Positions 25,361-39,210 of a DNA stretch of 64,000 nucleotides are shown in pieces. The stretch is from a plasmid, in the sequence record OW849299.1; one strand, written 5' to 3'. The notes under the pieces were generated by a model that was not told the origin of the DNA, searched no databases, and saw only the letters and a list, made by a program, of their open reading frames with translations. Each line of letters begins with the position of its first letter. Positions within the stretch are counted from its first letter, which is position 1. The position numbers and the translations under genes were made by a program.

Positions 25361-25924
25361 GTGAAAAAATATGTGCTGTTAACCCTGACCCTCATCGCCG
25401 GCGCCGTGGCAGCAAACCCGGTAACAGCGGCCGGCAATATTGCCGGCGATGTCCAGGCGCAAGCTGCGACTGAAGTGAAAACCGGGTTTTCACCCGGCGG
25501 GACCGCATTAAATCTGGTTCTGGATTCAATCGACCACGCGCAGCATGAGATTCTGGTTGCCGCGTACAGCCTGACCAGTCGTCCTGTTGCCGGCGCGTTG
25601 CGTGCCGCAAAAAAACGGGGCGTATCGGTGGTGGTGGTGGCCGATCGCAAAGCGAACGACAACCGGTACACCGAAGTGAACTTTCTGGCCAATAACCGCG
25701 TGGCGGTGCGGATCAACGATAACTACGAGGCCATGCATGATAAATTCATGGTCTTTGACCGCCGCGCCGTATTGACCGGCTCGTTTAACTTCAGCGCCAG
25801 CGCAGACAGTCGTAATGCGGAAAATGTGGTGCTGATCAGCGGCGCGCCTGCAGTAACTGAAGCCTACGTGAACGAGTTTTCCCGTTTATGGGACGAAGGA
25901 AAGGACGTGGCTCCACGGTACTGA
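25361..25924 (+). CDS. nuc: Phospholipase D-family endonuclease Nuc (secreted, single HKD motif)
   Basis: GTG start with SD AAGGGGG; signal peptide; HKD motif AMHDKFMVFD…GSFNFSASA. Confidence 0.75.
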   Translation: MKKYVLLTLTLIAGAVAANPVTAAGNIAGDVQAQAATEVKTGFSPGGTALNLVLDSIDHAQHEILVAAYSLTSRPVAGALRAAKKRGVSVVVVADRKANDNRYTEVNFLANNRVAVRINDNYEAMHDKFMVFDRRAVLTGSFNFSASADSRNAENVVLISGAPAVTEAYVNEFSRLWDEGKDVAPRY

Positions 25925-25964
25925 CCTACAGCAGCGGCAGAAACTCTGCCGCCTGATTTTTAAC

Positions 25965-26041
25965 TTGATTTATATGGCTCATTCGTCGTATTATCAAGGC
26001 TCATTTTTCGGTAGCGCCCCGACTGGCGAAGGAGTAAAACC
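25965..26041 (+). promoter_or_regulatory. Leading-region promoter/leader element, copy a (diverged: TTGATT-18-TATTAT, then conserved leader)
   Basis: TTGATTTATATGGCTCATTCGTCGTATTAT… then CGGTAGCGCCCCGACTGGCGAAGGAG 7 nt before the ATG at 26042. Confidence 0.55.
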
Positions 26042-26548
26042 ATGCAATCATTCCCCCTGTTCGTTTCCCGTGTCGTTCCTGTGATCACCCTGAGCCATTG
26101 TCTGCGGCAGCGGCGCTGGTCCCTGCACAACACGCCATGCCAGATTGACCTGAGATCAGGTTGTCACCTGCGCTCACAGCCTTTCGGCACGCTATCCAGA
26201 CGGGAAATAAGCGACCGGCCACCGGCTATGCCCCGCGGTTACTGGTTCAGGCAATGCAGCCGGGATGTCATGTTTACGGGGCGCATCGATCAGGCAGATC
26301 CTATGAAACAGGTCTATTACAACGAAGGCTGGAGCGGTCCGAACAAGTATACGTTTGAAGTTTATCAGCTGGAGAACGGGAGTTACCGGGCGCTGGCCCG
26401 CAAATGGAATGGCAAAATCAACAAGGTGCAGCAGGAAACGCAGTACCTGTCTGACACGCGGGAGGGGCTGAAGCACCAGGACTATCCCCGCACGCGCCAG
26501 GTGAAAATTTTTCTGAATTCAGACTTCTGGGAGAAGGGTAATGATTAA
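26042..26548 (+). CDS. Hypothetical protein (168 aa)
   Basis: Preceded by the conserved leader + SD. Confidence 0.55.
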   Translation: MQSFPLFVSRVVPVITLSHCLRQRRWSLHNTPCQIDLRSGCHLRSQPFGTLSRREISDRPPAMPRGYWFRQCSRDVMFTGRIDQADPMKQVYYNEGWSGPNKYTFEVYQLENGSYRALARKWNGKINKVQQETQYLSDTREGLKHQDYPRTRQVKIFLNSDFWEKGND

Positions 26549-27020
26549 GATGGTTAGCGTCGTTCCGCAGCCGGAAACAGTGAAGACGCTCCGGGAAAAA
26601 ATGGGCATGACTGAAACCGCATTAGGGGCTGTCATGGGGTACGAACTGCGCGCCTGGCAGCGTAAGGAAGCTATCAGCGACGATCTCAGCCAGTACAACA
26701 AGACCAGTCTTCGCCCAGGCGAATATAACATGCTGATGCTGATCGCCGGCGTGCATCCTGATTACCGCCTGAACAGGGCATTCAGTCCTGATGATATGGT
26801 CAAAGATCCCGCCACGGCCGAAGACGTTCGCCGCCTGCGTCTGGCGCTGGGGCTGAAGCACGCTGAAATTGCAGCGCTGTTTGGCTATAAACCGGCGTCA
26901 TGGCAGACCAAAGAAAAGGCTGCTCAGCGCGGCGTAAAGCTCAAGACCGGGGAATTCAATTTCCTGTTACTTCTGGCCGGTGAGCATCCGTCACTGCAGC
27001 TGGTTGAGAAGGCGAAATAA
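26541..27020 (+). CDS. Protein with two tandem XRE-like HTH modules (159 aa)
   Basis: Internal duplication: …MGMTETALGAVMGYELRAWQRKEA…RPGEYNMLMLIAGVHP… / …LGLKHAEIAALFGYKPASWQTKEK…KTGEFNFLLLLAGEHP…. Confidence 0.55.
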   Translation: MIKMVSVVPQPETVKTLREKMGMTETALGAVMGYELRAWQRKEAISDDLSQYNKTSLRPGEYNMLMLIAGVHPDYRLNRAFSPDDMVKDPATAEDVRRLRLALGLKHAEIAALFGYKPASWQTKEKAAQRGVKLKTGEFNFLLLLAGEHPSLQLVEKAK

Positions 27021-27048
27021 GGCCCGCGGCGACCAGAGAGGACCCTTT

Positions 27049-27459
27049 ATGATCACCACACGCCGAATGTTAATGCTGTATGCCTGCCTTGTGCCCGTAG
27101 CCCTGACAGGGTGTGATCTGGCTGATTATTTCCCGAATGTGCCACAGCCCGTGCCCGTGATTTCGCCCGGCTATCAGGTTGATATCGATGGCCACCCGGT
27201 CCGAATATCAGGATTTGATGACTGTCCGCGGGAAAAAGATGAAGCCCGGCACGCAGCTGCACAAGATGAGAAAGGCTGCATTGTGCTGTCTGCAGAGCGT
27301 TCCGAGGTGAAGGTCAGACTGTATCAGCCAGCCGGCGCCGTCACCGAAACCTGGCGGATCATCCGGGAAAAAGACGCTCGCCAGAACGATATTATTCGCC
27401 TGCAGCGCCCGAACGGTGCGCTTGTGATGCAAAATTTACAGGGGAAAGAGTCTCCTTAA
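27049..27459 (+). CDS. Lipoprotein (lipobox LTGC), 136 aa
   Basis: MITTRRMLMLYACLVPVALTGC; SD GAGAGGA. Confidence 0.55.
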   Translation: MITTRRMLMLYACLVPVALTGCDLADYFPNVPQPVPVISPGYQVDIDGHPVRISGFDDCPREKDEARHAAAQDEKGCIVLSAERSEVKVRLYQPAGAVTETWRIIREKDARQNDIIRLQRPNGALVMQNLQGKESP

Positions 27460-27482
27460 ACCAGGGAAATAACAAAATTAAC

Positions 27483-27576
27483 TTGATTTATATGGCTCAT
27501 TAGACGTATAATAATTACATCGAAAGGCAATCCGGTCTTTCGACGGTAGCGCCCCGACCGGCGCAGGAGTCACCTT
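27483..27576 (+). promoter_or_regulatory. Leading-region promoter/leader element, copy b
   Basis: TTGATT-18-TATAAT with ATGGCTCATTAGACGTATAAT core; leader hairpins TCGAAAG…CTTTCGA and GCGCC-ccgacc-GGCGC then AGGAG. Confidence 0.6.
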
Positions 27577-27840
27577 ATGACTGCTCTCAATTCTCAGCAA
27601 CAGGCTGATGTTGCCCGCTATATCCGGGAACATGGCAATAAAACCGTTATTTCCCCTGAATGGTCACTTATTTATTTCTCGCTGTGTCAGTGTGAATTAC
27701 ATCAATCGCATGAAGCCATTATTTTTCATAATGGCCGACCTGCAGGGCTATTTATTCTGAATGAAACAGGCGAGCTCACCGAATTATATCTGCTGGGGTC
27801 GCTTTCTGACATTCTCACCGCCGCTGCGGTCAACAAATAG
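27577..27840 (+). CDS. Hypothetical protein (87 aa)
   Basis: ATG 7 nt after the leader SD. Confidence 0.5.
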   Translation: MTALNSQQQADVARYIREHGNKTVISPEWSLIYFSLCQCELHQSHEAIIFHNGRPAGLFILNETGELTELYLLGSLSDILTAAAVNK

Positions 27841-27861
27841 CTTTCAGGGAGTAAATACACT

Positions 27862-28224
27862 ATGACCATGCAATCAGAACTTGTTTTTACTGATCCTATG
27901 CTCAACGTCGTTATTGCTGAAGTTAAGCGTTTTAATTGCCCGCTTCTTTTTGTCAAAGATCATGGCGTGTATGTGATGGCGGCGAAAGGTGAGAAAAACA
28001 GTAATGGGATGCACAATGTCTGTTACGCCAATGGTTTTAATCCGGATACAACGGATTTTGACGAGCTCTGGGACCGGATGCGTGATGCCTGTGGCGGAGA
28101 TGATTTTTGCGAATCCCTGGAGCTCGATCCGAGGTCGATTGAACTTCTCAGCCGTACCAAACCCTGCCTGAAAATTATGCTTTCAGAGACGGAACTGGAA
28201 GTTATTGCAGGGGGACAGAAATAG
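27862..28224 (+). CDS. Hypothetical protein (120 aa)
   Basis: SD AGGGAG; acidic protein; no family recognised. Confidence 0.5.
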   Translation: MTMQSELVFTDPMLNVVIAEVKRFNCPLLFVKDHGVYVMAAKGEKNSNGMHNVCYANGFNPDTTDFDELWDRMRDACGGDDFCESLELDPRSIELLSRTKPCLKIMLSETELEVIAGGQK

Positions 28225-28268
28225 ACCATAAAAGCCCGTTAAATCGGGCTTTTTTATATTTCACTGTA

Positions 28269-28300
28269 TTTACATCTAGGACAAAATGTCCTATTATATA
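28269..28300 (+). promoter_or_regulatory. Promoter TTTACA-17-TATTAT with a perfect 7-3-7 palindrome TAGGACAAAATGTCCTA (28277-28293) in the spacer; KorC-operator-like
   Basis: The palindrome closely resembles the RK2 KorC operator TAGGGCATAATGCCCTA (recall); it lies upstream of the radC-like/korC-like pair, suggesting autoregulation. Confidence 0.55.
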
Positions 28301-28345
28301 TTTGTGGCCGGGCATGGTGCTCAGGTCCCCTAACGAGGGAAATAT

Positions 28346-28795
28346 ATGAAATTTTCAGCAGAAGAACTCAACATTATCCGCCAGGCGGACGCCATTATTG
28401 CCGGTAAAATTACCACAACGGATTTTATCACCGGCGCCGACGCCGCGCGTTCCTTACTGCGGTTTCGTCTTGCTGCAGAACCACGCGAATCATTCTGCGC
28501 GTTCTTTCTTAACTGCCACAACGGCGTGATTGCGTTTGAAGAACTGTTTAAGGGAACTATCAGCAGCGTCACCGTTCATCCGCGTATCGTCCTGCAACGC
28601 GCCCTGCATCATAATGCCGCCGCCGTGGTACTGGCGCATAACCATCCTTCCGCTAACACTACACCCAGCCAGGCTGACAAGCTGATCACCGAGCGTCTGG
28701 CGCAGGTGCTGGGGATGGTTGATGTCAAAGTCCTCGATCACCTGATTGTGGGCGGCAGCGATATTTACTCTTTTGCTGAACATGGTCTGATTTGA
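28346..28795 (+). CDS. radC: RadC-like JAB-domain protein (UPF0758 / DUF2466 family)
   Basis: …HNHPSANTTPSQADKLITERL… JAMM/RadC signature; 149 aa. Confidence 0.7.
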   Translation: MKFSAEELNIIRQADAIIAGKITTTDFITGADAARSLLRFRLAAEPRESFCAFFLNCHNGVIAFEELFKGTISSVTVHPRIVLQRALHHNAAAVVLAHNHPSANTTPSQADKLITERLAQVLGMVDVKVLDHLIVGGSDIYSFAEHGLI

Positions 28796-28839
28796 TAACC
28801 GCGGCCGCACAGTGGTGCGGCCGGCTCTGGAGGCTTGCT

Positions 28840-29106
28840 ATGGGCAATAAATATACCGTGCCGCTTAACGTGGGCGCGATCCGCGAAAGCTGTTTCCGTC
28901 CCGCTGATAAATGGACCCCGCCGACGGGGGATGAACTCCGCTATCTGCTGGAAAATGTGCTCAACCTGAGTCAGGAGGGACTGGCGCGACATGTCGGCGT
29001 GAACGGCAGAACGGTGCGCCGCTGGGTGAACGGAGAAAGTGACATCGCGTATTCCGTCTGGTGCGTCCTTTGCATCGATGCCGGCTTACCGCCGATCTGG
29101 AAATAG
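28840..29106 (+). CDS. korC: Small HTH transcriptional repressor, KorC-like (88 aa)
   Basis: …LSQEGLARHVGVNGRTVRRWVNG… HTH; SD GGAGG; a strong hairpin GCGGCCGCAC-agtg-GTGCGGCCG separates it from radC; the KorC-like operator lies upstream of the operon. Confidence 0.45.
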   Translation: MGNKYTVPLNVGAIRESCFRPADKWTPPTGDELRYLLENVLNLSQEGLARHVGVNGRTVRRWVNGESDIAYSVWCVLCIDAGLPPIWK

Positions 29107-29169
29107 CAGCGCAAAACACCGACGCGCAAACGTGCTTCCTGAACGTATCGGATATACGAAGGAAATATT

Positions 29170-29452
29170 ATGAATACTGATAACTATTTTTTCAGAGTCC
29201 CGGCCACACGCGGAATACAGGGCGGCATAGAACAATACATGCTGACGGTTCCTATGGTCGTGTTACGTCGTATTCTTGCAATGGACAATGATGGCGATGT
29301 TATGGATCGCAGCCAGCGAGAAGCGAACAAAACGCGGGCCAAAAAAATACGGAATTATGTTGCCGGCGCAACATCAAAACGAGCTCCCTATATTTTGCCG
29401 TCAATTACCGGAAATATTGATAGTCATGTTGAATTCCTTCCCAGCGAACTCT
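29170..29452 (+). pseudogene. DGQHR-domain (DndB-like, ParB/Srx-fold) protein, N-terminal fragment, truncated by IS1
   Basis: …RSQREANKTRAKKIRNYVAGATSKRAPYILPSITGNI… (the QR…ITG motifs of the DGQHR family) runs into the IS1 IR; the stop codon is provided by IS1. Confidence 0.6.
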
Positions 29453-29467
29453 GGTAATGACTCCAAC

Positions 29468-29971
29468 TTATTGATAGTGTTTTATGTTCAGATAATGCCC
29501 GATGACTTTGTCATGCAGCTCCACCGATTTTGAGAACGACAGCGACTTCCGTCCCAGCCGTGCCAGGTGCTGCCTCAGATTCAGGTTATGCCGCTCAATT
29601 CGCTGCGTATATCGCTTGCTGATTACGTGCAGCTTTCCCTTCAGGCGGGATTCATACAGCGGCCAGCCATCCGTCATCCATATCACCACGTCAAAGGGTG
29701 ACAGCAGGCTCATAAGACGCCCCAGCGTCGCCATAGTGCGTTCACCGAATACGTGCGCAACAACCGTCTTCCGGAGCCTGTCATACGCGTAAAACAGCCA
29801 GCGCTGGCGCGATTTAGCCCCGACGTATCCCCACTGTTCGTCCATTTCCGCGCAGACGATGACGTCACTGCCCGGCTGTATGCGCGAGGTTACCGACTGC
29901 GGCCTGAGTTTTTTAAATGGCGGAAAATCGTGTTGAGGCCAACGCCCATAATGCGGGCGGTTGCCCGGCAT
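29468..29971 (-). CDS. insB: IS1 InsB
   Basis: Identical to 8392-8895. Confidence 0.85.
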
Positions 29972-30165
29972 CCAACGCCATTCATGGCCATATCAATGAT
30001 TTTCTGGTGCGTACCGGGTTGAGAAGCGGTGTAAGTGAACTGCAGTTGCCATGTTTTACGGCAGTGAGAGCAGAGATAGCGCTGATGTCCGGCGGTGCTT
30101 TTGCCGTTACGCACCACCCCGTCAGTAGCTGAACAGGAGGGACAGCTGATAGAAACAGAAGCCAC
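29890..30165 (-). CDS. insA: IS1 InsA
   Basis: Identical to 8814-9089. Confidence 0.85.
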
Positions 30166-30220
30166 TGGAGCACCTCAAAAACACCATCATACACTAAATC
30201 AGTAAGTTGGCAGCATCACC

Positions 30221-31210
30221 GGGATTCTTAAAATTCCGATGGACGCTGATTTAAAATTATTCGATGGCCAGCACCGTGCGCTGGGTATTTTTGAATTTGT
30301 ACGCGATTATTCCAATACGGAAGATACGATCAGCTTGTTGCTTACCGTTGGCCTGCCACTTGAGTTACGCCAGCAGTTTTTCGCTGATATTAATAACAAC
30401 GCGAGCAAACCGGCAGCGGCGATCAGTATGGCATATAACAACAATGATCCGGTCAACCAGCTGGCAATGCATCTGGCCCGAACCGTCACCGGGCTGGCGG
30501 GCACAGTGGATTTTGAACACAACGTGGTCCCGGCGAAAAGCTCACGGCTGATCAGCTTTAAAGCACTGAACGATGCGACGAAAAAAATGCTCAACCTGCG
30601 GGCCAACAGCATTCCCTCGACGCAACAGCGTGATATGGCAGAAAAGCTCTGGACTGCCTGGGCACAGGCGATGCGCTGGAATGATATTGCCCAGGATGAT
30701 ATCGCTGCGGAGTACCGTCAGGAGGCGCTGGGACTGCATGGCATCATGATAAATGCGATCGGTATGGCAACGGCCAGGATGTTACGGCACAGAACACCTG
30801 AAAGCATCGAGAACCTTCTGGCCTGTGCGGAAAACGGAGACAACGGTTTTCATTATCGGGAGTCGTTTGTACCTGAGTGCTGGGAAGGGAAGTGTGTTGA
30901 TCCGGAGACTGGCACCATTAAAACTGACCGGCGGGCGCTTGAAGCAACGGCTGAAGCGCTGCAAAAGCTGATAGACCCGTTCGCAGATGCGCTGTGGTTG
31001 CGTGCTTATCTGCCAGTTGAAGAGGCGAGTGATACGGCATTACTGAAATATGCTGCTGACATCGAGAGTTATAAGCAGCGCACAGCCGTGCCGATGATCA
31101 ATATCGTGGAGAAGCTGAAGGCGCTGGGTGACGGCGAACCGCAGTTCAGAGCGTCGGTGCTGGCTTCCCGTGAGGGGCTAAGCCGCTATCTGGCCGGGGC
31201 TGAAGGCTGA
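30221..31210 (+). pseudogene. DGQHR-domain (DndB-like) protein, C-terminal fragment
   Basis: …LKLFDGQHRALGIFEF… DGQHR motif 10 codons after the IS1 junction; 323-aa ORF from an internal ATG. The frame is not restored by clean IS1 excision. Confidence 0.6.
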
Positions 31211-31230
31211 CGCGGTGGTTGCCGCCTGCA

Positions 31231-31261
31231 GGGCAATACGGGCATCGAACCCGTATTGCCC
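31231..31261 (+). terminator. Strong hairpin (perfect 12-bp stem GGGCAATACGGG / CCCGTATTGCCC) after the DGQHR gene
   Basis: Seen directly; no T-run, so it may act as an RNA stabiliser/processing site rather than a classical terminator. Confidence 0.4.
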
Positions 31262-31720
31262 TGAAACGCGCTGAGCCGCTCTCTGGGCGCGCATTTAAAA
31301 AACCTGTACCCATCATCGTTTTTATGTCTTTGACGAGTCCTGCCCCCTATTCTGGCCTTTTCTGATGTGATCCCGCCCTGGTGTCTGCAAGTTAACTTAA
31401 TTTTGACGCCCGCACAGCGTGTCTTCCCTGTTCATTTCTGCTCAGTTGCCGGCGTTTTCTGGCTGGCCTGTCGTACTAAAACACCTCTGGGCCCCTTCGG
31501 CTCCTGCCCGTCGGGCAGTCGTCAGCCACACTCCGCTAGCCAGGCAAAGCCTGGCAGCTCCGCCGAACCCCCTGCGGGGTTTCGGGCTATCGCTAGTGTC
31601 TGATGCCTGAACCCCTGCACCATGCCGGCAAAGCACCTTCATCGGGCTGATGGGGATCTGAAAAGCAAAATTTACAGGGAAAGGAGTTCAGGAAAAAACA
31701 AAGAAAATTAATCAGATAAC
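31262..31720 (+). other. ~460-bp GC-rich non-coding structured region with no convincing ORF; candidate ssi / ncRNA / single-strand element of the leading region
   Basis: Multiple local hairpins (GCCAGGCAAAGCCTGGC, CCCCCTGCGGGG, CCCGTCGGG…); the only ORFs are GTG-started, SD-less and overlapping. Confidence 0.3.
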
Positions 31721-31722
31721 GC

Positions 31723-31817
31723 TTGATTGTTATGGCTCATTAGACGTATAATGATCACATCGAAAGGCAATAAGGCTTTTCGCGGTAGCGCCCCGACTGG
31801 CGCAGGAGTAACAAATT
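31723..31817 (+). promoter_or_regulatory. Leading-region promoter/leader element, copy c
   Basis: TTGATTGTTATGGCTCATTAGACGTATAAT + leader hairpins + AGGAG. Confidence 0.6.
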
Positions 31818-31997
31818 ATGAGTAAAGCACTGACCCCCTCCCAGCTTAAAGCTGAACTGGAAACGCAGAAAGATGCGCTGCTGAAGGCGTGCCTGTATGC
31901 CCTCAACGAAATCCCTAACCGTCGTTTAAGTGGCCCGTATGCGTCCACGTATGCGCTGGCCGAGCAGGTCAGTAAACTGCTTCAGCGCTGCAAATAA
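31818..31997 (+). CDS. Small protein (59 aa) not in the ORF track
   Basis: MSKALTPSQLKAELETQKDALLKACLYALNEIPNRRLSGPYASTYALAEQVSKLLQRCK; ATG 7 nt after the conserved AGGAG. Confidence 0.5.
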   Translation: MSKALTPSQLKAELETQKDALLKACLYALNEIPNRRLSGPYASTYALAEQVSKLLQRCK

Positions 31998-32037
31998 TCA
32001 TTGATGGGCTGGCATTGCCAGCCCTGTTCACCCCTTA

Positions 32038-32069
32038 CGGTAGCGCCCCGCATGGCGCAGGAGTCTGAA
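32038..32069 (+). promoter_or_regulatory. Conserved leader element without a promoter (internal translation-initiation module)
   Basis: CGGTAGCGCCCCGCATGGCGCAGGAG 6 nt before ATG 32070; preceded by hairpin GGGCTGGCATTGCCAGCCC. Confidence 0.5.
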
Positions 32070-32930
32070 ATGTCATCTGAAAAAACTCTCCCGTCGGTCG
32101 ATCTGATGTCCTGCCAGCATGGCGGTGAAGTGATCCCGTCCATAGCTATTGAGCGCATTATCTCGTTGCGGAATGAAGGTATTCGCGTCTATCTCGACGG
32201 CATAGACAAGCTGCGAAAAGCGCGCGATCTGATGCAGCAGGCCGGAGGCTGTCAGTACCTGTATGACTACGACAAAGCCGTAGAGAGCGCGATCAAATGG
32301 AGCGACACCAGACCAGACCAGGCCGAAACGGCTATTTCCCGCGTTATCGACGGAAAAATCTGGGATCGGCTGATGTCGGAAACCGGCATGTATACGCTGA
32401 TGAGCAACAAACAACGTCAGGAATGGGATCGGCAGGTGGCAGGCGAGGAAATGCCGCCGATAACGCTGGAGAACGTTATGAGTACGTTCCGGCACCTGAA
32501 CGCAAGCAAGGCCGATACTTTCACGCAAGGGCTGATTGATATCTTTAAATCCCTGTCGTGGGATTATAAAACCAATAACCCCTGCATGTTTGGCAAGCGT
32601 ATCATCATCGCGCCGTTGCTCGATGTCTGGCGCAGTAGCTGGGTGCGCTTCAGCTCAGACGGGCACACCAAAATTGACGATCTGGCGCGGCCGTTCTACG
32701 TGCTGGACGGGCGTAACGTGCCTGATTACCGCGTTTCTGACGGTGCCAAACTGGATGCCTTTTTCAGTGAAAACCAGTTCAACGGTAAGGTGTTCGAGTG
32801 TGATTACTTCAGCGTGCGATATTACAAAAAGGGCAGCGCGCACATTACGTTTAAACGCCCGGAGCTGGTTGAGAAGATCAATAATCTGGTTGCCAGTCAC
32901 TATCCCGGAATGTTACCCCCTCGCGTGTAA
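32070..32930 (+). CDS. Hypothetical 286-aa protein (largest ORF of the small-gene array); candidate anti-restriction/establishment function
   Basis: Start placed by the leader SD (the ORF track extends to 32001 in the same frame); no motif I can name with confidence. Confidence 0.55.
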   Translation: MSSEKTLPSVDLMSCQHGGEVIPSIAIERIISLRNEGIRVYLDGIDKLRKARDLMQQAGGCQYLYDYDKAVESAIKWSDTRPDQAETAISRVIDGKIWDRLMSETGMYTLMSNKQRQEWDRQVAGEEMPPITLENVMSTFRHLNASKADTFTQGLIDIFKSLSWDYKTNNPCMFGKRIIIAPLLDVWRSSWVRFSSDGHTKIDDLARPFYVLDGRNVPDYRVSDGAKLDAFFSENQFNGKVFECDYFSVRYYKKGSAHITFKRPELVEKINNLVASHYPGMLPPRV

Positions 32931-33025
32931 TGCAGACGGCAGGCCGCATTTGCGGCCTGAAATATAAACAGGGAAAGGAAGTATTCCCCGGCCTGAAAAA
33001 ATCATGCCGGGCATGTATTTATTGC

Positions 33026-33119
33026 TTGATTAATATGGCTCATTAGACGTATAATAATCACATCGAAAGGCAATGAGGCTTTTCGCGGTAGCGCCCCGAC
33101 TGGCGCAGGAGTAATAAAT
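33026..33119 (+). promoter_or_regulatory. Leading-region promoter/leader element, copy d (canonical)
   Basis: TTGATTAATATGGCTCATTAGACGTATAATAATCA + TCGAAAGGCAATGAGGCTTTTCG + GGTAGCGCCCCGACTGGCGCAGGAG. Confidence 0.6.
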
Positions 33120-33458
33120 ATGGCTATTCAATCCCTTCAGTTCCGTAACGGCTCCGTTTCTCTTGGTGATGTTTTTGTTTCCAGCTGGGGTTATGAGCAG
33201 ACAAATACCTGTTTTTATCAGGTGATCGCCCTGCGCGGTAAGAAAACCGCCGTACTGCGCCGCATCGCTGCGCAGCAGGTGAAAGCAGACAGTGCAATGT
33301 CTGGCGAGTTAAAGCCGGTATTGAACGACTTTAAAGGCGAACCCGTGACCCGTCGCATCTGTGAAAACCATGAGCATCCGTCTGTCAGCATTGACGAGTA
33401 CGAACAGGCTTATAAGACCGATCCTAACGAAAGCCATTTTTACAGCACCTGGGGCTGA
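33120..33458 (+). CDS. Hypothetical protein (112 aa)
   Basis: ATG after the conserved leader. Confidence 0.5.
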   Translation: MAIQSLQFRNGSVSLGDVFVSSWGYEQTNTCFYQVIALRGKKTAVLRRIAAQQVKADSAMSGELKPVLNDFKGEPVTRRICENHEHPSVSIDEYEQAYKTDPNESHFYSTWG

Positions 33459-33555
33459 CCGCCTGCTACGCCCCGCAAGGGGCGTATAGTCGAAGACTTA
33501 TTCAACCAAAACGTGAATACTATGCGAAATAACAAGGCGCTCAGGACGCAGATAC

Positions 33556-33786
33556 ATGGCGGAAACAGTTTATCAGGCGCGGAGGCGTTTTTACCTTCTC
33601 CGTTTTCGGCGCAGTCGTAACCCGGACACACTGGAAAAAATGTACGAATCCATGCGGGATCGTGGACAGGTGCCGCCGGAGGACACCGAGGCTTTTGAGG
33701 CTGCCGCCGACCATCGCCGCGCAGAGCTGGCATCGGGACGCATCTGGGATAAGATCCCGCCGCATGTCTGGCAGTATGTAAAATAA
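33556..33786 (+). CDS. Hha/YmoA-family nucleoid-associated modulator (76 aa)
   Basis: C-terminus …EAFEAAADHRRAELASGRIWDKIPPHVWQYVK matches the Hha signature (…AADHRLAELTMNKLYDKIP..VW…). Confidence 0.6.
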   Translation: MAETVYQARRRFYLLRFRRSRNPDTLEKMYESMRDRGQVPPEDTEAFEAAADHRRAELASGRIWDKIPPHVWQYVK

Positions 33787-33818
33787 TCACAGCGCCCCTA
33801 CACGGGGCGTTTTTTTGC

Positions 33819-33898
33819 TTGCATATATGGCTCATTAGACGTATAATGTTTTTACTGATTCAAATCAGTACCTTCCTAAACAGCCTTACAGGTGCATT
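33819..33898 (+). promoter_or_regulatory. Leading-region promoter element, copy e (TTGCAT-18-TATAAT) with a different leader (hairpin TACTGATTCAAATCAGTA)
   Basis: Core ATGGCTCATTAGACGTATAAT conserved; the leader is not the common one. Confidence 0.55.
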
Positions 33899-34012
33899 AT
33901 GACCTCTTCTGAAATCCTCCATAACCTCCCTCAGATTATCACGGCCGTGGCCGCCCTCATTACAGCCATTACCGGGCTGATTAAAGTCATGAAGGATAAA
34001 GGTAAGGACTGA
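33899..34012 (+). CDS. Small hydrophobic peptide (37 aa) not in the ORF track
   Basis: MTSSEILHNLPQIITAVAALITAITGLIKVMKDKGKD; one TM helix; downstream of promoter copy e. Confidence 0.4.
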   Translation: MTSSEILHNLPQIITAVAALITAITGLIKVMKDKGKD

Positions 34013-34049
34013 ACCGCCGCAGGGGGCGACAGCCCCCTGCATCCCTAAC

Positions 34050-34083
34050 CGGCAGCGCCCCGACTGGCGCAGGAGTAAAAAAA
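34050..34083 (+). promoter_or_regulatory. Conserved leader element without a promoter
   Basis: CGGCAGCGCCCCGACTGGCGCAGGAG 8 nt before GTG 34084; preceded by hairpin CAGGGGGCGACAGCCCCCTG. Confidence 0.5.
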
Positions 34084-34320
34084 GTGACAACGCTGCATAT
34101 TCGAGAAATTCCCACTGATGGAGCGCCGCCTATCTGTGCAGGCCGCTCAATCTCAGATGATGACCTTTGCGCCTCATGCCAGCATCTCGACTATCGCCCT
34201 GGGCACCTCAGCGCCTGCCTGCTGTCAGGTTGCGGGCGTGACGACTGGCCTTCAGAACTGGATGCAAACGGCTACAGCGTTGCCTGTAGCAGCTATGAGC
34301 GTGAAAAATCGCTTGATTAA
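34084..34320 (+). CDS. Cys-rich small protein (78 aa, GTG start)
   Basis: Frame chosen from the conserved SD position; 7 Cys (CAGRS…CASCQH…CLLSGC…) suggests a Zn-binding module. Confidence 0.45.
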   Translation: MTTLHIREIPTDGAPPICAGRSISDDDLCASCQHLDYRPGHLSACLLSGCGRDDWPSELDANGYSVACSSYEREKSLD

Positions 34321-34404
34321 TATGGCTCATTAGACGTATAATTATCACATCGAAAGGCATCCGGTCTTTCGCGGCAGCGCCCCGACTGGCGCAGGAGTTT
34401 TACA
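34313..34404 (+). promoter_or_regulatory. Leading-region promoter/leader element, copy f
   Basis: TTGATTAATATGGCTCATTAGACGTATAATTATCA + leader. Confidence 0.6.
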
Positions 34405-34815
34405 ATGCACGGTAACGTAAATGAAATTTGCGCAAGGCTTCTCGATAGTTTTGATCCACAGCAGCGGATCAGCCTGCTGATCTGGACTGCTGAAGATGTC
34501 CATGACTGCACCAGTGATATGAACCTCACTGACGATGAGGCCGAAGCCGTTCTGGCAGAAATCGCGGAATGCAGTTCACACAGCCGTTATGGCGTCGGAA
34601 AAGATACCGTCTGGAGCCTGGCAAAGCAGGTGCGCGAAGATGCCGCCCGCGATCGAAAAATAGAGGTCAATGCCGAGGCGCTGCAAAAAGTCGTGGCGCT
34701 GGCGGCGCAGTTTATCCGGCTGGAAGAAATCCAGTCTGGTGAAGGAGCTGCACGCCGACTTTATCCGCAGGAGTCTGAGGCGCTGGAGTGCATCACGAAG
34801 GTGATTAACGGCTAA
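34405..34815 (+). CDS. Hypothetical acidic protein (136 aa)
   Basis: ATG after the conserved leader. Confidence 0.5.
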   Translation: MHGNVNEICARLLDSFDPQQRISLLIWTAEDVHDCTSDMNLTDDEAEAVLAEIAECSSHSRYGVGKDTVWSLAKQVREDAARDRKIEVNAEALQKVVALAAQFIRLEEIQSGEGAARRLYPQESEALECITKVING

Positions 34816-34842
34816 TTCACGCAGTAACGCAGCGAACTTTCA

Positions 34843-34876
34843 CGGTAGCGCCCCGACTGGCGCAGGAGGAAAAAAC
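34843..34876 (+). promoter_or_regulatory. Conserved leader element without a promoter
   Basis: CGGTAGCGCCCCGACTGGCGCAGGAGG 8 nt before ATG 34877. Confidence 0.5.
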
Positions 34877-35182
34877 ATGTCCCAGAATGAAGCCTATTAC
34901 GACACGCTGGCCCTGATTGAAAAGGGGCAATGGTGTTTCGGCAGTATGGACGAAGAAAACGAAGAGCGGGCAATCAAGGCCGCTAAGGCGCTGGCGCTGT
35001 TTGCGCGCCTGAATGAGCAGGACTGCGACGGACACCCGGTTTCCGAAATCATCGTTGATTTTATCGCTAACCTGATGCACCTGGGGGAAGCGATAAATTT
35101 TCGTGTGCTCGATGAAGAAAGCGCGGTGATCCCGTTGGTCAGGATCGCCGCCGTACACTTTAACGCTGAAACAAAGTCATAG
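34877..35182 (+). CDS. Hypothetical acidic protein (101 aa)
   Basis: ATG after the leader. Confidence 0.5.
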   Translation: MSQNEAYYDTLALIEKGQWCFGSMDEENEERAIKAAKALALFARLNEQDCDGHPVSEIIVDFIANLMHLGEAINFRVLDEESAVIPLVRIAAVHFNAETKS

Positions 35183-35287
35183 TAATCATGTGAATCAGAA
35201 GGGGGCAGGCGTGATCCTGCCCCCAAAAATGGACAGGGGAAAGAGTTCTCCCGCCTGAAAATATTCAGGCAGGCGGGAATTTTTTGC

Positions 35288-35382
35288 TTGATTAATATGG
35301 CTCATTAGACGTATAATAATCACATCGAAAGGCAATCCGGTCTTTCGACGGTAGCGCCCCGACTGGCGCAGGAGTACAGAAA
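35288..35382 (+). promoter_or_regulatory. Leading-region promoter/leader element, copy g (canonical), driving klcA
   Basis: Identical to copy d over ~90 nt; preceded by terminator CCCGCCTGAA…TTCAGGCAGGCGGGAATTTTTT. Confidence 0.6.
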
Positions 35383-35823
35383 ATGTCTACTGAACTGAAT
35401 CAACCCGCCATCACTGCACGCATTATCCCCAATAACCGCCGCATGGCCTTTCTGCCACGTCTGTTCGGCGCCTGGTATCTCACAGGTGAGGCCGGTGTCT
35501 ACAACCTCGCACGCTCTCTCTGCGTCGATTATCAAGGCGGTTCCTGGGAGTTCGTCGAACTGTCTTGCGGTAGCGGCTTCATGTACCCACTGAGCGCAGA
35601 GCGCTTCACGGTATCGGTTAGCGGTAACTGGTTCGAAGGGGAACTGTCCGCAGAAGCTACCGGTATCGTGCTGACCCTGTTCACCCTGAACCACATGATC
35701 TGGCACGCACATGATGAAGGCTATCAGCACATCTGCGACATGCTGATCACCCAGCAGGAAAAGCTCAAATTATATGCCGACCAGCACGCCGAAGCCGGTT
35801 TGATTTACCGCGCGATTGACTGA
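35383..35823 (+). CDS. klcA: Anti-restriction protein KlcA/ArdB family
   Basis: 146 aa, MSTELNQPAITARIIPNNRRMAFLPRLFG… resembles RK2 KlcA / ArdB (recall). Confidence 0.7.
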   Translation: MSTELNQPAITARIIPNNRRMAFLPRLFGAWYLTGEAGVYNLARSLCVDYQGGSWEFVELSCGSGFMYPLSAERFTVSVSGNWFEGELSAEATGIVLTLFTLNHMIWHAHDEGYQHICDMLITQQEKLKLYADQHAEAGLIYRAID

Positions 35824-35866
35824 AACGGCGGCCCCCGTGAGGGGGCCAATACTGACAGGGGGAAAA

Positions 35867-36151
35867 ATGTTAACACTAACTGATATTCGCGCCAGCAATA
35901 CGGTGCTGGTTACGGAATTTGGCGGCGTGCGTGCTGTGCATTTCTGTCTGCATGAAAAATTAAGCGGTAGCGACAACGATCTGTGGTTTCCGCTTGCCAA
36001 TGGAGCCGACCTGTTCGAGGCGCTGGAAAGCATTATGTGCATCAATTTTGCCGCTGCTAACGTTGTCTCGCTGGAGTTCCTGCGGCAGAACGGGAAGTGC
36101 AAAGACTACCGGATCACCTACAACAAGGCCAAATTCAAGCCATTAGGTTAG
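35867..36151 (+). CDS. Hypothetical protein (94 aa)
   Basis: ATG 35867 with SD AGGGGGA (the longer ORF start at 35816 overlaps klcA). Confidence 0.45.
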   Translation: MLTLTDIRASNTVLVTEFGGVRAVHFCLHEKLSGSDNDLWFPLANGADLFEALESIMCINFAAANVVSLEFLRQNGKCKDYRITYNKAKFKPLG

Positions 36152-36215
36152 ATGTCTGGCATCATTTGATGTTCATATTTGAACAAAATTAAATAAAAAA
36201 AATACGTCTGATGAG

Positions 36216-36305
36216 TTGATAAAATGGCTCATTAGACGTATAATTATTACATCGAAAGGCAGTTGAGTCTTTCGCGGTAGCGCCCCGACTGGCGAAGGAG
36301 TTGAA
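36216..36305 (+). promoter_or_regulatory. Leading-region promoter/leader element, copy h (TTGATA-17-TATAAT), uniquely flanked by a 13-bp inverted copy of the core (TACGTCTGATGAG at 36204-36216)
   Basis: TACGTCTGATGAG…CTCATTAGACGTA form a 13-bp imperfect inverted repeat bracketing the -35; leader + AGGAG. Confidence 0.55.
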
Positions 36306-36527
36306 ATGAAAGAAGCAGACCAAAAAAAAGTGAATGCCGTAATGGCAATTGCTGATTATCTCGGTGTGAAAAATCAAATCGAGGTGATCGAATACTCAGC
36401 CGAATCAGTGCAGGTTGAGTGGCGAAATCCTAAAACAAAACAGCTTATTCATCGTGATTACACTTTTGCAAATTCCTTTGTAAAAGACTTTGAAAAAGCC
36501 CTGAAATCGAACGTGAAGTTTTACTGA
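36306..36527 (+). CDS. Hypothetical protein (73 aa)
   Basis: ATG after the leader. Confidence 0.5.
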   Translation: MKEADQKKVNAVMAIADYLGVKNQIEVIEYSAESVQVEWRNPKTKQLIHRDYTFANSFVKDFEKALKSNVKFY

Positions 36528-36532
36528 AAAAG

Positions 36533-36550
36533 AGGGGGAGAAATCCCCCT
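36533..36550 (+). terminator. Weak hairpin AGGGGGA-gaaa-TCCCCCT between orf73 and ssb
   Basis: No clean T-run; possible attenuator. Confidence 0.3.
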
Positions 36551-36598
36551 TAATCCTCCCATTTTTTACTGATAAACATCAAATATATGAGGTGTATT

Positions 36599-37033
36599 AT
36601 GTGGAAACGTGGCGAAAACAAAGTGATTCTGATGGGGCGTGCTGGCAAAGATGCAGAAGTGCGTTACACCCCAAACAGAACGGCCATTGCGAGCCTGACG
36701 CTGGCTACAGAAATCAGCTACAGCGACAACGAAGGGAAGGAGCAAAAAGAAACGGAATGGCATGATATTGTCATTTTTGGAAAGAAAGCCGAAGCAGCTG
36801 GGAAGTACTTCAAAAAGGGTATGATGCTGTATTTTGTCGGGCGCATTCGTAATAACAAATGGCAAGGGACAGACGGCAAAATGCGCAGCAATAAGGAAAT
36901 TGTGATCGATAATAACGGCGAAATGCAGATGCTGCCGGGAGCTGGGCCACGTAACACCAGTGCAGAAGGCCAGGGAGGCATTGAAAATCATGATGAACCG
37001 CCGTTCCCGGATATGAATGATTACCCGCAGTGA
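36599..37033 (+). CDS. ssb: Plasmid single-stranded DNA-binding protein SSB
   Basis: MWKRGENKVILMGRAG…WHDIVIFGKKAEAAGKYFKKGMMLYFVGRIRNNKWQ… OB fold, acidic C-terminal tail DEPPF. Confidence 0.85.
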   Translation: MWKRGENKVILMGRAGKDAEVRYTPNRTAIASLTLATEISYSDNEGKEQKETEWHDIVIFGKKAEAAGKYFKKGMMLYFVGRIRNNKWQGTDGKMRSNKEIVIDNNGEMQMLPGAGPRNTSAEGQGGIENHDEPPFPDMNDYPQ

Positions 37034-37088
37034 GTATTTGAGTTAGAACGGCCCGCAGGACGCGGGCCGCCAATCCAGAGGGGGGAGT

Positions 37089-37400
37089 ATGAATATCAGT
37101 GAACAATATCGGGTGGCGGTCGTCAGTACCGGCCATGTAAAAAAAGAAGACGCGGAACTACTGGACAAGGTCTGTAACGATGACTTGTCCGGTCAAGGTT
37201 TGTTCTGGATCGAGAAAAATCGCTATGGGTGGATATTGCGTATTTCTGCTACTGAACAATGGCGAGTGGAATTAACCAGGGCGGGGATCAGTGCAAGTGC
37301 TTTGGATAATATAGCCGCGTTAAATGGTGCCGGGTTCGACTGGATTTGGTTTGACCGGGATGCGGAACAGGTGCCAGAACTGACCGTTTGGGAGTGGTAA
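37089..37400 (+). CDS. Hypothetical protein (103 aa)
   Basis: SD GGGGGAG; follows hairpin CGGCCCGC-agga-GCGGGCCG. Confidence 0.5.
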   Translation: MNISEQYRVAVVSTGHVKKEDAELLDKVCNDDLSGQGLFWIEKNRYGWILRISATEQWRVELTRAGISASALDNIAALNGAGFDWIWFDRDAEQVPELTVWEW

Positions 37401-37440
37401 ACCGGTTAAAAATTTGCCTCGAAAAGGGGCATTTTTTTCT

Positions 37441-37532
37441 TGCCTGCAATGGCTCATTAGACGTATAATAATCGTGAAGTTTAAAAGTGGATATTGATTA
37501 AAACGCTCTGTAAATAACGTGGAGAGAATATT
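37441..37532 (+). promoter_or_regulatory. Leading-region promoter element, copy i (TTGCCT-18-TATAAT) with a non-conserved AT-rich leader
   Basis: Core ATGGCTCATTAGACGTATAAT conserved; drives an AT-rich gene. Confidence 0.5.
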
Positions 37533-38069
37533 ATGGCGGCCTTATACCCTTATGAGGTTTATACCCTTATTGTGTCAGAATTAATCGTAAGCCATTTTAA
37601 TGATGTCGCTATGGTATATCCGGGAAGCGAAGAAATTAAAAAGAACTACGACAGTGAATTAAGTGCTGTACAGGTAGTTAATGGCATCAGAGAAAAACTG
37701 ATTGAAGATGGTGTTATACAGTGCGAACAGTGCCCACTGCTATCCGAGTGGGATGAGAACAAGGTTATCAACCAGCTAATTAAAGATTACCGCCTGATTC
37801 TCAATCGTGACTATGAACTAAACCGTGTTCGTCAGCAGCTGGCCCCGGAGCTGATCGCACAGATAGAAAACTGGAAAGAGCAGAAGTATTCCGATTCTGC
37901 GAAGGAATACGAGGTGCTCTATGAAACCATCAACATCAACGGAAAGGAGGTTACAGGCAAACTAAACGTAGTTGCAGTAAGTCGCTTTGATGCTGTTTTC
38001 ATCGTAGGGCAGCGTCACGCTAACGATAACTTTTTGGTTCTGGATGTGAAGGAGGTGATGAATCATTGA
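37533..38069 (+). CDS. Hypothetical protein (178 aa, ~35% GC; compositionally foreign)
   Basis: SD GGAGAG; markedly lower GC than its neighbours. Confidence 0.5.
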   Translation: MAALYPYEVYTLIVSELIVSHFNDVAMVYPGSEEIKKNYDSELSAVQVVNGIREKLIEDGVIQCEQCPLLSEWDENKVINQLIKDYRLILNRDYELNRVRQQLAPELIAQIENWKEQKYSDSAKEYEVLYETININGKEVTGKLNVVAVSRFDAVFIVGQRHANDNFLVLDVKEVMNH

Positions 38070-38138
38070 AATCCAGAAAAGGTGCCGGATTGCGCCAACA
38101 ATCCGGCTGGGTAGGCAATTTAAATTGTGAGGTTCAAA

Positions 38139-38279
38139 ATGCCATTGTGGATTATACACTATGCTGAAGATGTCGCAAACGGAGTGCAAACAAAGTCGCA
38201 TCCGATGAACGCAGCGCAATGGGATCACTTCCGTTTCTGGTTGGCAGTGTTCCGGCGGATTAAAGAAGCCGCAATGTAA
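38139..38279 (+). CDS. Small protein (46 aa) not in the ORF track
   Basis: MPLWIIHYAEDVANGVQTKSHPMNAAQWDHFRFWLAVFRRIKEAAM; RBS context TGTGAGGTTCAAAATG identical to that of parM; followed by a terminator. Confidence 0.35.
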   Translation: MPLWIIHYAEDVANGVQTKSHPMNAAQWDHFRFWLAVFRRIKEAAM

Positions 38280-38294
38280 TCTGTAACTGTCTCA

Positions 38295-38318
38295 GGGGCG
38301 CTGTATGCGCCCCTTTTT
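38295..38318 (+). terminator. Rho-independent terminator (GGGGCGC-tgtat-GCGCCCC-TTTTT)
   Basis: Classical hairpin + T5 ending the leading-region transcription unit. Confidence 0.65.
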
Positions 38319-38570
38319 AATATCCTTGCCCGGACTCCTTTCCCTGTAAATTTATCGGGATCAAGGGCGGATCGTGGCCCTGAACGTGCGCACCATTGAG
38401 CGCTGCATCGCAGCGGAACCGGAAAATTTTTTTCCGGCCAATGAGTGCCCTTGTCACCGGAACGGTGACAAGTATGCACGCACAATTACACGAACAGGCA
38501 GCACCCATGCCCGGCCTGACAGGCCGGGAGCTATATCATAATGTGGGATGCTATATGTGAAAGGTGAAGG

Positions 38571-38936: not shown

Positions 38937-38969
38937 ATGCCCTCCCAATAATGTCAAAATCGCCATGCC

Positions 38970-39205: not shown

Positions 39206-39210
39206 ATCTG

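Follow-up and report, generated by a model that had tools for sequence, protein, structure and literature searches.

The leading region of IncN plasmids carries repeats, termed CUP, that consist of a promoter and ArdK operators and that are also substrates of rearrangement; CUP-mediated inversions and deletions have been reported in IncN2 plasmids (PMC5371602). For the IncL plasmid pOXA-48, two studies from 2025 found that the gene orf20 is essential, as it could be deleted only when supplied in trans and its silencing led to plasmid loss, and the targets of its product were unknown to both. Here, a stretch of 64,000 nucleotides (nt) from plasmid record OW849299.1 (the window) is examined, in which a two-hairpin leader ending in a Shine-Dalgarno sequence (SD), AGGAG, had been noticed from the letters alone in front of at least ten genes (the original prediction). 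The region with the leaders matches the Klebsiella pneumoniae plasmid OW970026.1 at 100% identity and many pOXA-48-type plasmids at 99.8%, among the latter NZ_OW969712.1, which is typed as IncL/M, MOBP, and MPF_I; the window is the IncL plasmid pOXA-48. The nic motif ACATCTTGT, as given for pCTX-M3 (PMC8125031), was found at 39112-39120 on the minus strand of the window, and the region that holds the leaders is therefore the conjugative leading region. The genes served by the leaders are oriented towards the origin of transfer (oriT), and the transferred strand, which is the minus strand, is the template strand of all of them.

The 21-mer GCGCCCCGACTGGCGCAGGAG occurs in ten copies at no more than two mismatches, all on the plus strand between 26014 and 36300, against an expectation of 0.02 from shuffles, none of which reaches ten. 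In short form the consensus is CGGYAGCGCCCCG-NNN-GGCG-M-AGGAG, and the full conserved core spans 26 nt (CGG[T/C]AGCGCCCCG-NNN-GGCG[C/A]AGGAG), comprises the second hairpin (H2) and the SD, and ends 5-9 nt before a start codon in all ten copies (Table 1), these being the ten start codons of the original prediction. Seven of the ten cores lie behind a repeated near-consensus promoter, TTGATT-18-TATAAT with the invariant spacer ATGGCTCATTAGACG. As TTGATTNATATGGCTCATTAGACGTATAAT, this promoter is present six times at no more than three mismatches (expected 0.00) and nine times when looser variants are counted; a sigma-70 consensus scan lists seven of the nine, with 9-11 of 12 hexamer matches, and does not list those at 33823 (-35 TTGCAT) and 37440 (-35 TTGCCT). 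These last two promoters (33823-33851 and 37440-37469, the latter beyond the range of the original prediction) are joined to different leaders. The first hairpin (H1), with arms UCGAAAGGC/GNNUUUCGA and the layout UCGAAAGGC-loop-GNNUUUCG(A), starts 7-8 nt after the -10 box; at 8-9 base pairs (bp) it is longer than had been described, and it is present in six of the seven promoter-linked copies rather than in all of them, the first cassette (orf19, start 26042) being the one that lacks it. Counted as modules, there are nine promoters, six copies of H1, and ten of H2, all on the plus strand between 25965 and 37469, with promoter and core together in seven cases, the core alone in three, and the promoter alone in two. 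The three promoter-less cores (32038, 34050, and 34843), recognized as such from the outset, sit inside operons behind unrelated upstream sequence, and no promoter-like hexamers were found upstream of them. Promoter, H1, and H2 with its SD are therefore separable modules, and the modular promoter/leader/ribosome-binding-site cassette that had been proposed is what the locus contains. A scan of both strands of the window for a stable hairpin followed within 3 nt by GGAG or GAGG and, after a further 4-10 nt, by a start codon recovered the ten cassettes and only three other sites.

The comparison with IncN plasmids begins with the gene at 31818, which belongs to the CcgAI family, named for an IncN 'CUP-controlled gene'. 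When aligned, the leader of the IncN CUP (locus L170) reads CATCGGGAGGCAATACCG...CGGTAAC...GCC-CAAAGC-GGC...AGGAGTA and that of pOXA-48 reads CATCGAAAGGCAATCCGG...CGGTAGC...GCGCC-CCGACT-GGCGC-AGGAGTA, so that CATCGRRAGGCAAT, CGGTARC, the hairpin, and AGGAGTA are shared; the promoter part does not align. On this alignment, the pOXA-48 leader is homologous to the IncN CUP leader. The two systems also have in common a conserved repeat directly upstream of several leading-region operons of the same orientation, a promoter and a repressor site within the repeat (predicted ones in pOXA-48), rearrangements mediated by the repeats, a cargo that includes ardB/klcA-type antirestriction genes and ccgAI, and a promoter-less copy of the hairpin and SD, which in IncN precedes ccgAI. 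They differ in that the IncN promoter (TTGACT-17-GATACT) is unrelated and has its ArdK site upstream, whereas the putative pOXA-48 operator lies in the spacer; in that the repressor is ArdK in IncN and, as a candidate, the XRE-type protein Orf20 in pOXA-48; and in that the IncN H2 has 3 bp and stands 6-9 nt from the SD. The IncN locus carries a Ros/MucR-type gene (PF05443), which is here taken to be ardK, in place of an Orf20 homologue. The annotation of the 24-kb region includes no Ros/MucR-type gene, and the spacer/operator of pOXA-48 is unrelated to the ArdK site. No account of IncL/M cassettes, either as leader sequences or as descriptions, was found in the pOXA-48 or pCTX-M3 literature, and the CUP literature found, the original CUP paper aside, describes no role for RNA structure. 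Judged by sequence, the pOXA-48 element is thus an undescribed IncL/M relative of the IncN CUP repeats that probably works with a repressor of a different family. The density of conservation is unusual, as the original prediction held, and has a precedent in the homologous leader of the IncN CUP repeats.

In PLSDB, the cassette was found in 873 records at 5077 places. Divergent cassettes were found on pCAV1217-71-type IncFII/MOBP plasmids, a Rouxiella plasmid, metagenomic contigs, a Rosenbergiella contig, and the more distant IncL/M-like plasmids L174 and L175; a contig scan anchored on the -10 box and H1 returned chance matches nearly throughout (Vibrio, Photobacterium), a few IncL/M copies, and the one Rosenbergiella contig. 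A tblastn search with the XRE-type orf20 matched 3729 PLSDB plasmids, 2916 of them at less than 60% identity. In a sample of these plasmids, the same cassette architecture was seen in a Serratia IncX-like plasmid, in IncX1, IncX3, IncX4, and IncI2 plasmids, and in an Edwardsiella plasmid. It consists of a promoter with an operator in its spacer, H1, a linker, a GC-rich H2, (A/G)GGAG, and, 5-9 nt further on, ATG. From IncN to IncX and IncI2, the two-hairpin leader is conserved, and no earlier description of it as an RNA element seems to exist. As a separate observation, the hybrid cassettes L118, L132, and L123 show that cassettes have been exchanged between plasmid families by recombination within the leader.

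Selection on H1 was examined in 18 distinct variants of the IncL/M clade, aligned with their loops padded with N. In these, 98.6% of cells are paired and five of the eight pairs have changed on both sides, the exchanges including G-C to C-G and A-U to G-C (for example, CGAAAGGC/GUCUUUCG to CCAGAGGC/GCUUCUGG); none of 500 shuffles matches these values, and slid controls are only 35-58% paired. Two of the pairs switch between G-C and G.U, the latter filling 16 of the 36 cells concerned. As G.U pairs would read C.A on the complementary strand, the structure must be that of the sense RNA, and the covariation indicates that H1 is selected there, neither in an antisense transcript nor in the DNA strand that is transferred. 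An antisense RNA, which had been raised as a possible regulator, is not supported; no minus-strand promoters were found within the leaders either. The same pairs bear on the idea that the hairpins form in the incoming single-stranded DNA (ssDNA), for priming or as ssDNA promoters: the cassettes do lie in a leading region, ssDNA promoters are known from the leading regions of F and IncI1 plasmids, and the transferred strand is here the template strand; however, many selected G.U pairs become C.A mismatches on that strand, the -35 and -10 hexamers lie outside any hairpin, and the spacing of the element from the SD and start codon is constant, so that this idea is given almost no credence. Every H1 variant folds when taken in isolation (z-scores between -3 and -6 in IncL/M), whereas the folding z-scores of whole leaders are unremarkable (-1.9 to +0.8), and it is only the isolated hairpins that stand out. 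The H1 loops are AAUCCG/AAUGAG. In other lineages, wholly different stems occupy the equivalent place (CGGCA/UGCCG, GGGCA/UGCCC, GGGGA/UCCCC, GGGAA/UUCCC, GGAGG/CCUCC, and others).

For H2, a GC-rich hairpin of 3-5 bp was compared in 14 lineages; it ends 1-3 nt before GGAG in 11 of them and 7-9 nt before it in three, and its stems include GCGCC, UCGCC, CACC, GCCGC, GCCC, GCCCG, GCCCA, and GCCG. In a cross-lineage alignment of 15 lineages that was anchored on the structure, and is to that extent biased towards it, 98.3% of the cells of the inner four pairs, counted in Python, are paired, and each position shows two to three pair types; none of 2000 shuffles reaches this. An independent control used the annotated genes of six loci and asked for a hairpin with 4 bp or more, an energy of -4 kcal/mol or lower, and no more than 3 nt between its end and the SD; such a hairpin precedes 22 of 22 cassette genes and 1 of 91 other annotated genes. 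Within the clade that runs from IncL/M to Serratia, the closing pair is G-C, U-A, or G.U and is mismatched in 6 of 17 variants, at least two lineages have separately replaced C9 by U, which makes a U.G pair, and one Serratia copy (CACC/GGUG) has a compensatory change of G-C to A-U. These comparisons indicate that H2, too, is a selected structure of the sense-strand RNA; in its structural part, the original prediction is upheld. RNAalifold gave no consensus structure on a MAFFT alignment of 14 lineages, because the stems are out of register in it; MAFFT also mis-gapped two other alignments, and loops were therefore padded with N or pairs counted directly. The H2 loop of pOXA-48 is CCGACU. Outside the IncL/M clade the loops are not conserved between families, and they differ even between copies on one plasmid (ACAC/AAAC in IncX3, AAG/AGC in IncX1, GCA/GUA in Edwardsiella); loops that vary so freely favor a structural role over a sequence-specific reader.

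Within the clade from IncL/M to Serratia, by contrast, the core is nearly invariant, with 13 of 21 columns unchanged, including the CGG upstream of H2 and the CCG in its loop, which hints at an extra constraint. One explanation, which is thought unlikely, is a post-transcriptional regulon in which the core is the binding site of a single trans-acting RNA-binding protein or small RNA, of plasmid or host origin, that co-regulates the translation or decay of leading-region mRNAs. The invariant columns persist among IncL/M, pCAV1217, Rouxiella, Serratia, and metagenomic copies despite a difference of about 25% in promoter and operator, the copies within a plasmid evolve in concert, and wherever gene order was read a small conserved protein (the C-terminal domain of Orf19 or the product of a separate open reading frame, ORF) is encoded directly upstream of the XRE gene and overlaps it. 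Such a factor is difficult to reconcile with the lack of a phenotype on deletion of orf19 (PMC12365149) or with an SD that is not sequestered. Further, no Rfam family matches the leader at E<=1 in 25500-40500 beyond chance hits elsewhere, and no GGA motif occurs in the hairpin loops, the sole GGA being that of the SD, which argues against the CsrA-like factor once suggested. In IncL/M, the binding site may take the form of an H-type pseudoknot, in which CGG pairs with the loop CCG and stacks on H2 beside the SD. The invariant bases of the core are confined to CGG...CCG and CGCC...GGCG, all variable bases lie between these, in what would be the pseudoknot loops, and all 17 core variants have the CGG:CCG helix unchanged; moreover, the Rosenbergiella leaders have CGU...ACG, a compensatory change of G3-C11 to U-A. 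This pattern of bases is that expected of a small H-type pseudoknot. The CGG:CCG stem varies, however, in that one lineage only, which amounts to a single event, and the helix is absent from other families, the IncN, IncI2, and IncX leaders having no equivalent pairing and variable loops of 3-4 nt. A common RNA-binding regulator, as originally suggested, may act in the IncL/M clade but is not favored outside it, where the H2 loops vary freely.

A second explanation for the conserved core places the selection on DNA, with the core kept as a homologous or site-specific recombination site that shuffles cargo, or as a protein operator or roadblock, rather than as RNA structure. This is improbable. 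It would account for the metagenomic hybrids L118 and L132, in which the IncL/M promoter, H1, and H2 pass over, within the core, into an SD and gene of the pCAV1217 type (GGCG/ACGAGGT...ATGGAACTCAATG, with the slash at the junction), the same gene (MELNDT...) having an SD of the IncL/M type in L123; it would also suit the rearrangements by CUP in IncN2 plasmids and the concerted evolution of copies, which is compatible with gene conversion. However, G.U wobbles and compensatory substitutions retain RNA pairing and not DNA identity, conservation is strand-asymmetric (CCG is conserved in one loop half only), a loop length that varies from 5 to 7 nt would not be tolerable for a dimeric DNA-binding protein, and the core keeps a set place with respect to the SD and start codon. 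Recombination itself is probably real, but as a by-product rather than the selected function.

The linker between the hairpins raises a further alternative, namely that GCGGTAGCG (in leader 3, within 31775-31808) is an ops-like non-template element that would bring host RfaH to RNA polymerase and so protect the leading-region operons from Rho and H-NS. The likeness to ops/JUMPStart elements lies in a 9-nt match on the non-template strand, in a 5' leader whose operons were acquired by horizontal transfer. Where a copy has TTTCGCGGTAGCGCC, it agrees with the ops consensus GGCGGTAGCGTG at positions 2-10 and thereby throughout the core C3-G8, the promoter-less copies start exactly at CGGTAG, and the IncN CUP leader has CGGTAA/CGGTAG at the same place. 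The best match nevertheless covers only 9 of 12 positions, and the T11-G12 pause is replaced by C-C in all copies, an ops T11G change being strongly defective in vivo (PMC5995543). Additionally, T6, which RfaH reads specifically, is C in two of the ten window copies and in many relatives, G8 varies (CGGTAC, CGGTAA), the pCAV1217-type leaders have CGGAAT, nothing similar occurs in IncX or IncI2 leaders, and the strong SDs and short operons are unlike those of RfaH targets. Recruitment of RfaH is accordingly rated as very improbable; an ops identity of the linker was rejected on the variability of T6 and G8 and the missing TG, and the match is probably coincidental.

The position of H2 against the SD had also been taken to mean that it gates the access of ribosomes. 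In the predicted minimum free energy and centroid folds, however, the SD is single-stranded, the predicted unpaired probability of the ribosome-binding site is 0.48 for cassette genes and 0.46 for other genes (p=0.63), and destruction of either arm of H2 in silico barely alters it. These values give no support to gating, and control by temperature, another of the original suggestions, fares no better with an unpaired SD and ordinary accessibility. The converse role, in which H2 is an insulator that keeps the SD open, was considered and dropped, as accessibility is unchanged when H2 is destroyed in silico.

Orf20 is a likely candidate for the repressor of the repeated promoter and is proposed as such because protein and operator co-vary across lineages. 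Both halves of Orf20 match single-helix-turn-helix (HTH) homologues in tblastn, and it is therefore read, provisionally, as a protein with two HTH domains. With the exception of IncN, all cassette-bearing lineages examined have a homologue; it was seen to belong to an operon led by a cassette in the lineages read at that level (IncL/M type, pCAV1217 type, Rouxiella, and Serratia), and in IncX1/3/4, IncI2, and Edwardsiella it is located in the same leading region. The sequence of the operator varies between lineages along with the XRE protein: those with long homologues (144-165 amino acids, aa) have asymmetric spacers, the operator-like spacers being ATGGCTCATTAGACG in IncL/M, GTATGTCTTTTGTCG in the pCAV1217 type, GTATGTGTAATGTCG in Rouxiella, and ATCAAACGATG in Serratia, and those with single-HTH homologues (71-83 aa) have the perfect palindromes CCATCATTTGATGG, CCTGCAAATGCAGG, TAGGTCAGTTCTGACCTA, ATACGACT-N4-GGTCGTAT, and TTACCGCA-N2-TGCGGTAA. 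A role as repressor fits the published essentiality of orf20. IncN keeps a homologous leader despite its other repressor, and the leader is therefore independent of the repressor-operator module and is probably older; this independence in turn points to a function at the level of RNA.

Two further observations concern the operon that encodes Orf20. The XRE gene is always preceded and overlapped by a small conserved ORF without a known family (26042-27020 in the window; L164, 2771-3284; L165, 6860-7361; L166, 8766-9216), which corresponds to the C-terminal half of Orf19 in IncL/M and is a separate ORF of 80-90 aa in IncX and IncI2; for Orf19 itself, no relative was found in Pfam, NCBIfam, or the PDB. 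The promoter of this first cassette (25965-26008) differs from the others in its -10 box, TATTAT, and in a second GGCTCATT half-site 22 bp downstream, at 25998, and is bracketed by the inverted repeat CTTGAT...ATCAAG, to which GTTAAAG...CTTTAAC corresponds in the pCAV1217 type (L003, ~8135-8175). These peculiarities of sequence suggest a special autoregulation.

The reading that is considered probable, on balance, is that the leading region of pOXA-48 is a regulon of standardized expression cassettes and the IncL/M counterpart of the IncN CUP regulon. A full cassette would comprise a near-consensus sigma-70 promoter with the operator ATGGCTCATTAGACG in its spacer; a transcribed leader made of H1, the short linker CGGUA, and a GC-rich H2 of 4-5 bp; and the SD AGGAG directly after H2, with the start codon 5-9 nt further on. 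In a recipient that lacks the repressor, all nine promoters would fire together (zygotic induction), and the leader would give a diverse set of small cargo genes (klcA, ccgAI, the ssb operon, and hha, among others) a uniform structured 5' end and a strong ribosome-binding site, until Orf20 accumulates and shuts the promoters down. The cassettes would thus probably drive a burst of establishment and anti-defense genes after conjugation. H1 and H2 would be structural elements and not switches, protecting the 5' ends of mRNAs or of their processed forms; internal cistrons have H2 and the SD alone, and processing there would place H2 at the 5' end so created. That H2 stands strictly next to the SD suggests that it interacts with the 30S subunit during initiation; on the analogy of rpsO, it may aid docking on the 30S platform or stack against the SD helix. 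Alternatively, it may serve to leave no unprotected RNA in the interval from a protective hairpin to the bound ribosome.

Several results weigh against this regulon of standardized cassettes. The cassette promoters are known as consensus matches only. The ribosome-binding sites of cassette genes are no more accessible than those of other genes, and disruption of H2 is without effect on them. The core of the IncL/M clade is conserved beyond what a hairpin needs. Compensatory changes, which the original prediction had named as a check, are strong in H1 and in H2 across lineages but weak for H2 within the IncL/M clade, where 41 of 500 shuffles reach the observed score, and the cross-lineage result has the structural bias given above. 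Finally, H1 has a predicted offset from the 5' end of +4 in IncL/M, but in 9 of 14 lineages the offset is 7-12 nt, which is too far under the rule for 5'-terminal stabilizers that reportedly goes back to Emory, Bouvet and Belasco in 1992; protection of 5' ends by H1 is thus plausible, on modeled transcript ends, mainly in IncL/M, Serratia, IncX1, and Xenorhabdus.

A bolder extension of the cassette regulon is put forward with considerable doubt. The leader might be an unrecognized and widespread family of cis-acting RNA (an 'establishment-gene leader' of IncN, IncL/M, IncX1/X3/X4, IncI2, and related Enterobacterales plasmids), in which the hairpin that abuts the SD, with the pseudoknot in IncL/M, would be a device for docking of the ribosome or a factor that governs when and how strongly anti-defense genes are translated in the first minutes after conjugation and that would, together with Orf20, provide two layers of control over plasmid establishment, one transcriptional and one post-transcriptional.

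Table 1. Cassette modules and associated features of the pOXA-48 leading region, in window coordinates.
Feature	Position	Strand	Remarks
Promoter copy 1	25965..25994	+	variant TTGATT-18-TATTAT; predicted to drive orf19-orf20-orf21
Operator-like GGCTCATT in promoter copy 1	25976; second GGCTCATT at 25998	+	
Leader core 1	26009..26034	+	CGGTAG + H2 GCGCC/GGCGA + AGGAG; no H1; start 26042
orf20	26541..27020	+	XRE-like; in first cassette operon
Promoter copy 2	27483..27512	+	TTGATT-18-TATAAT
Leader 2	27520..27569	+	H1 27520-27543, core 27544-27569; start 27577
Promoter copy 3	31723..31752	+	
Leader 3	31760..31808	+	H1 31760-31782, core 31783-31808; start 31818 (ccgAI homologue)
Promoter-less core 4	32038..32063	+	intercistronic; start 32070 (DUF4942 gene)
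Promoter copy 4	33026..33055	+	
Leader 5	33063..33111	+	H1 33063-33085, core 33086-33111; start 33120
Promoter copy 5	33823..33851	+	TTGCAT...TATAAT; different leader; predicted to drive 37-aa hydrophobic ORF 33899-34012
Promoter-less core 6	34050..34075	+	CGGCAG variant; GTG start 34084
Promoter copy 6	34313..34342	+	
Leader 7	34350..34397	+	H1 34350-34371 (5-nt loop), core 34372-34397; start 34405 (DUF1380 gene)
Promoter-less core 8	34843..34868	+	start 34877
Promoter copy 7	35288..35317	+	
Leader 9	35325..35374	+	H1 35325-35348, core 35349-35374; start 35383 (klcA/ardB-type antirestriction gene)
Promoter copy 8	36216..36244	+	TTGATA-17-TATAAT
Leader 10	36252..36300	+	H1 36252-36274, core 36275-36300 (GGCGA variant); start 36306 (operon runs to ssb)
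Promoter copy 9	37440..37469	+	TTGCCT...ATGGCTCATTAGACGTATAAT; unrelated leader; start 37533

The cassettes are embedded in a gene order that runs from parM/stbB and a PLD nuclease through about 25 small genes to oriT-mobA-traI; the small genes include radC, korC, a DGQHR/DndB-like gene interrupted by IS1, a DUF4942 methyltransferase-like gene, hha, a klcA-type antirestriction gene, and ssb. The IS1 copy, at 29457-30230, splits the DGQHR/DndB-like gene (29170-29457 and 30239-31210), which is uninterrupted in pEL60, pCTX-M3, and L175. Upstream of radC-korC, a promoter-like site contains the perfect palindrome TAGGACAAAATGTCCTA at 28269-28297, the counterpart of the one KorC operator that has been reported in pOXA-48; this promoter stands in mid-regulon but is separate and belongs to no cassette. 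The interval 31210-31700 is a GC-rich, non-coding stretch of about 500 nt with many dyad symmetries that is conserved in pCAV1217-71 (L003, ~9740-10280) and the Rouxiella plasmid (L004, ~10330-10740). On the minus (transferred) strand, 31400-31680 folds with z=-2.8, one of 200 shuffles being as stable, and the interval is a candidate ssDNA element of the leading region, of the single-strand initiation (ssi) or ssDNA-promoter type. The hydrophobic ORF behind promoter copy 5 (MTSSEILHNLPQIITAVAALITAITGLIKVMKDKGKD) and its promoter have homologues in the Rouxiella plasmid (L004, ~11740-11920) and in L175 (17123); the product looks, from its sequence, like a type I toxin and matches no family in Pfam or NCBIfam. 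An equation of this ORF with the published DqlB toxin was withdrawn, as the paper places dqlB/agrB between repA and trbC. A palindrome at 39589-39649 gave a sub-threshold Rfam match to a microRNA family on both strands; it lies inside the traI/nikB ORF (39515-41494), about 470 nt from the predicted nic site, and is not an RNA gene.

The plasmids concerned, pOXA-48, IncX3, IncX4, IncI2, and IncN, are the main vehicles of OXA-48, NDM, MCR-1, and KPC/IMP resistance. The two studies from 2025 did not explain why orf20 is essential, and the cassette map offers an answer that can be tested: if Orf20 represses nine identical strong promoters, its loss would derepress the whole leading region. More generally, the shared leader shows one RNA design reused by plasmids of different transfer types for their establishment and anti-defense genes. 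The leader is therefore a potential common target, for example of antisense agents or CRISPR interference, a mark by which new anti-defense cargo genes can be recognized in sequence data, and a natural, portable part for gene expression.

Beyond CUP and the ops element, three kinds of described system offer partial parallels. In rpsO, a pseudoknotted mRNA is said to dock on the platform of the 30S subunit next to the SD helix, in work attributed to Marzi et al. in 2007. The cassette leader would resemble it in having a compact fold immediately 5' of the SD, with a pseudoknot possible in the IncL/M clade; it differs in that S15 is the repressor there and none comparable is known here, and in that the SD lies outside the fold, so that the likeness is purely one of analogy. 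The hairpin of the ompA 5' untranslated region and the leader of T7 gene 10 likewise place a hairpin near the 5' end of the mRNA, followed by a strong SD, and T7 late mRNAs reuse the same leader for many genes. Here, a second hairpin abuts the SD, and the predicted 5' end lies at too great a distance from H1 in many lineages. In the KorA/KorB/KorC regulons of IncP and IncU plasmids and the ArdK regulon of IncW plasmids, the repeats are operators only and include no shared transcribed leader or ribosome-binding site; what these regulons have in common with the cassettes of pOXA-48 is one plasmid repressor acting, as would Orf20, on repeated operators in several promoters, and a loss of that repressor that is deleterious.

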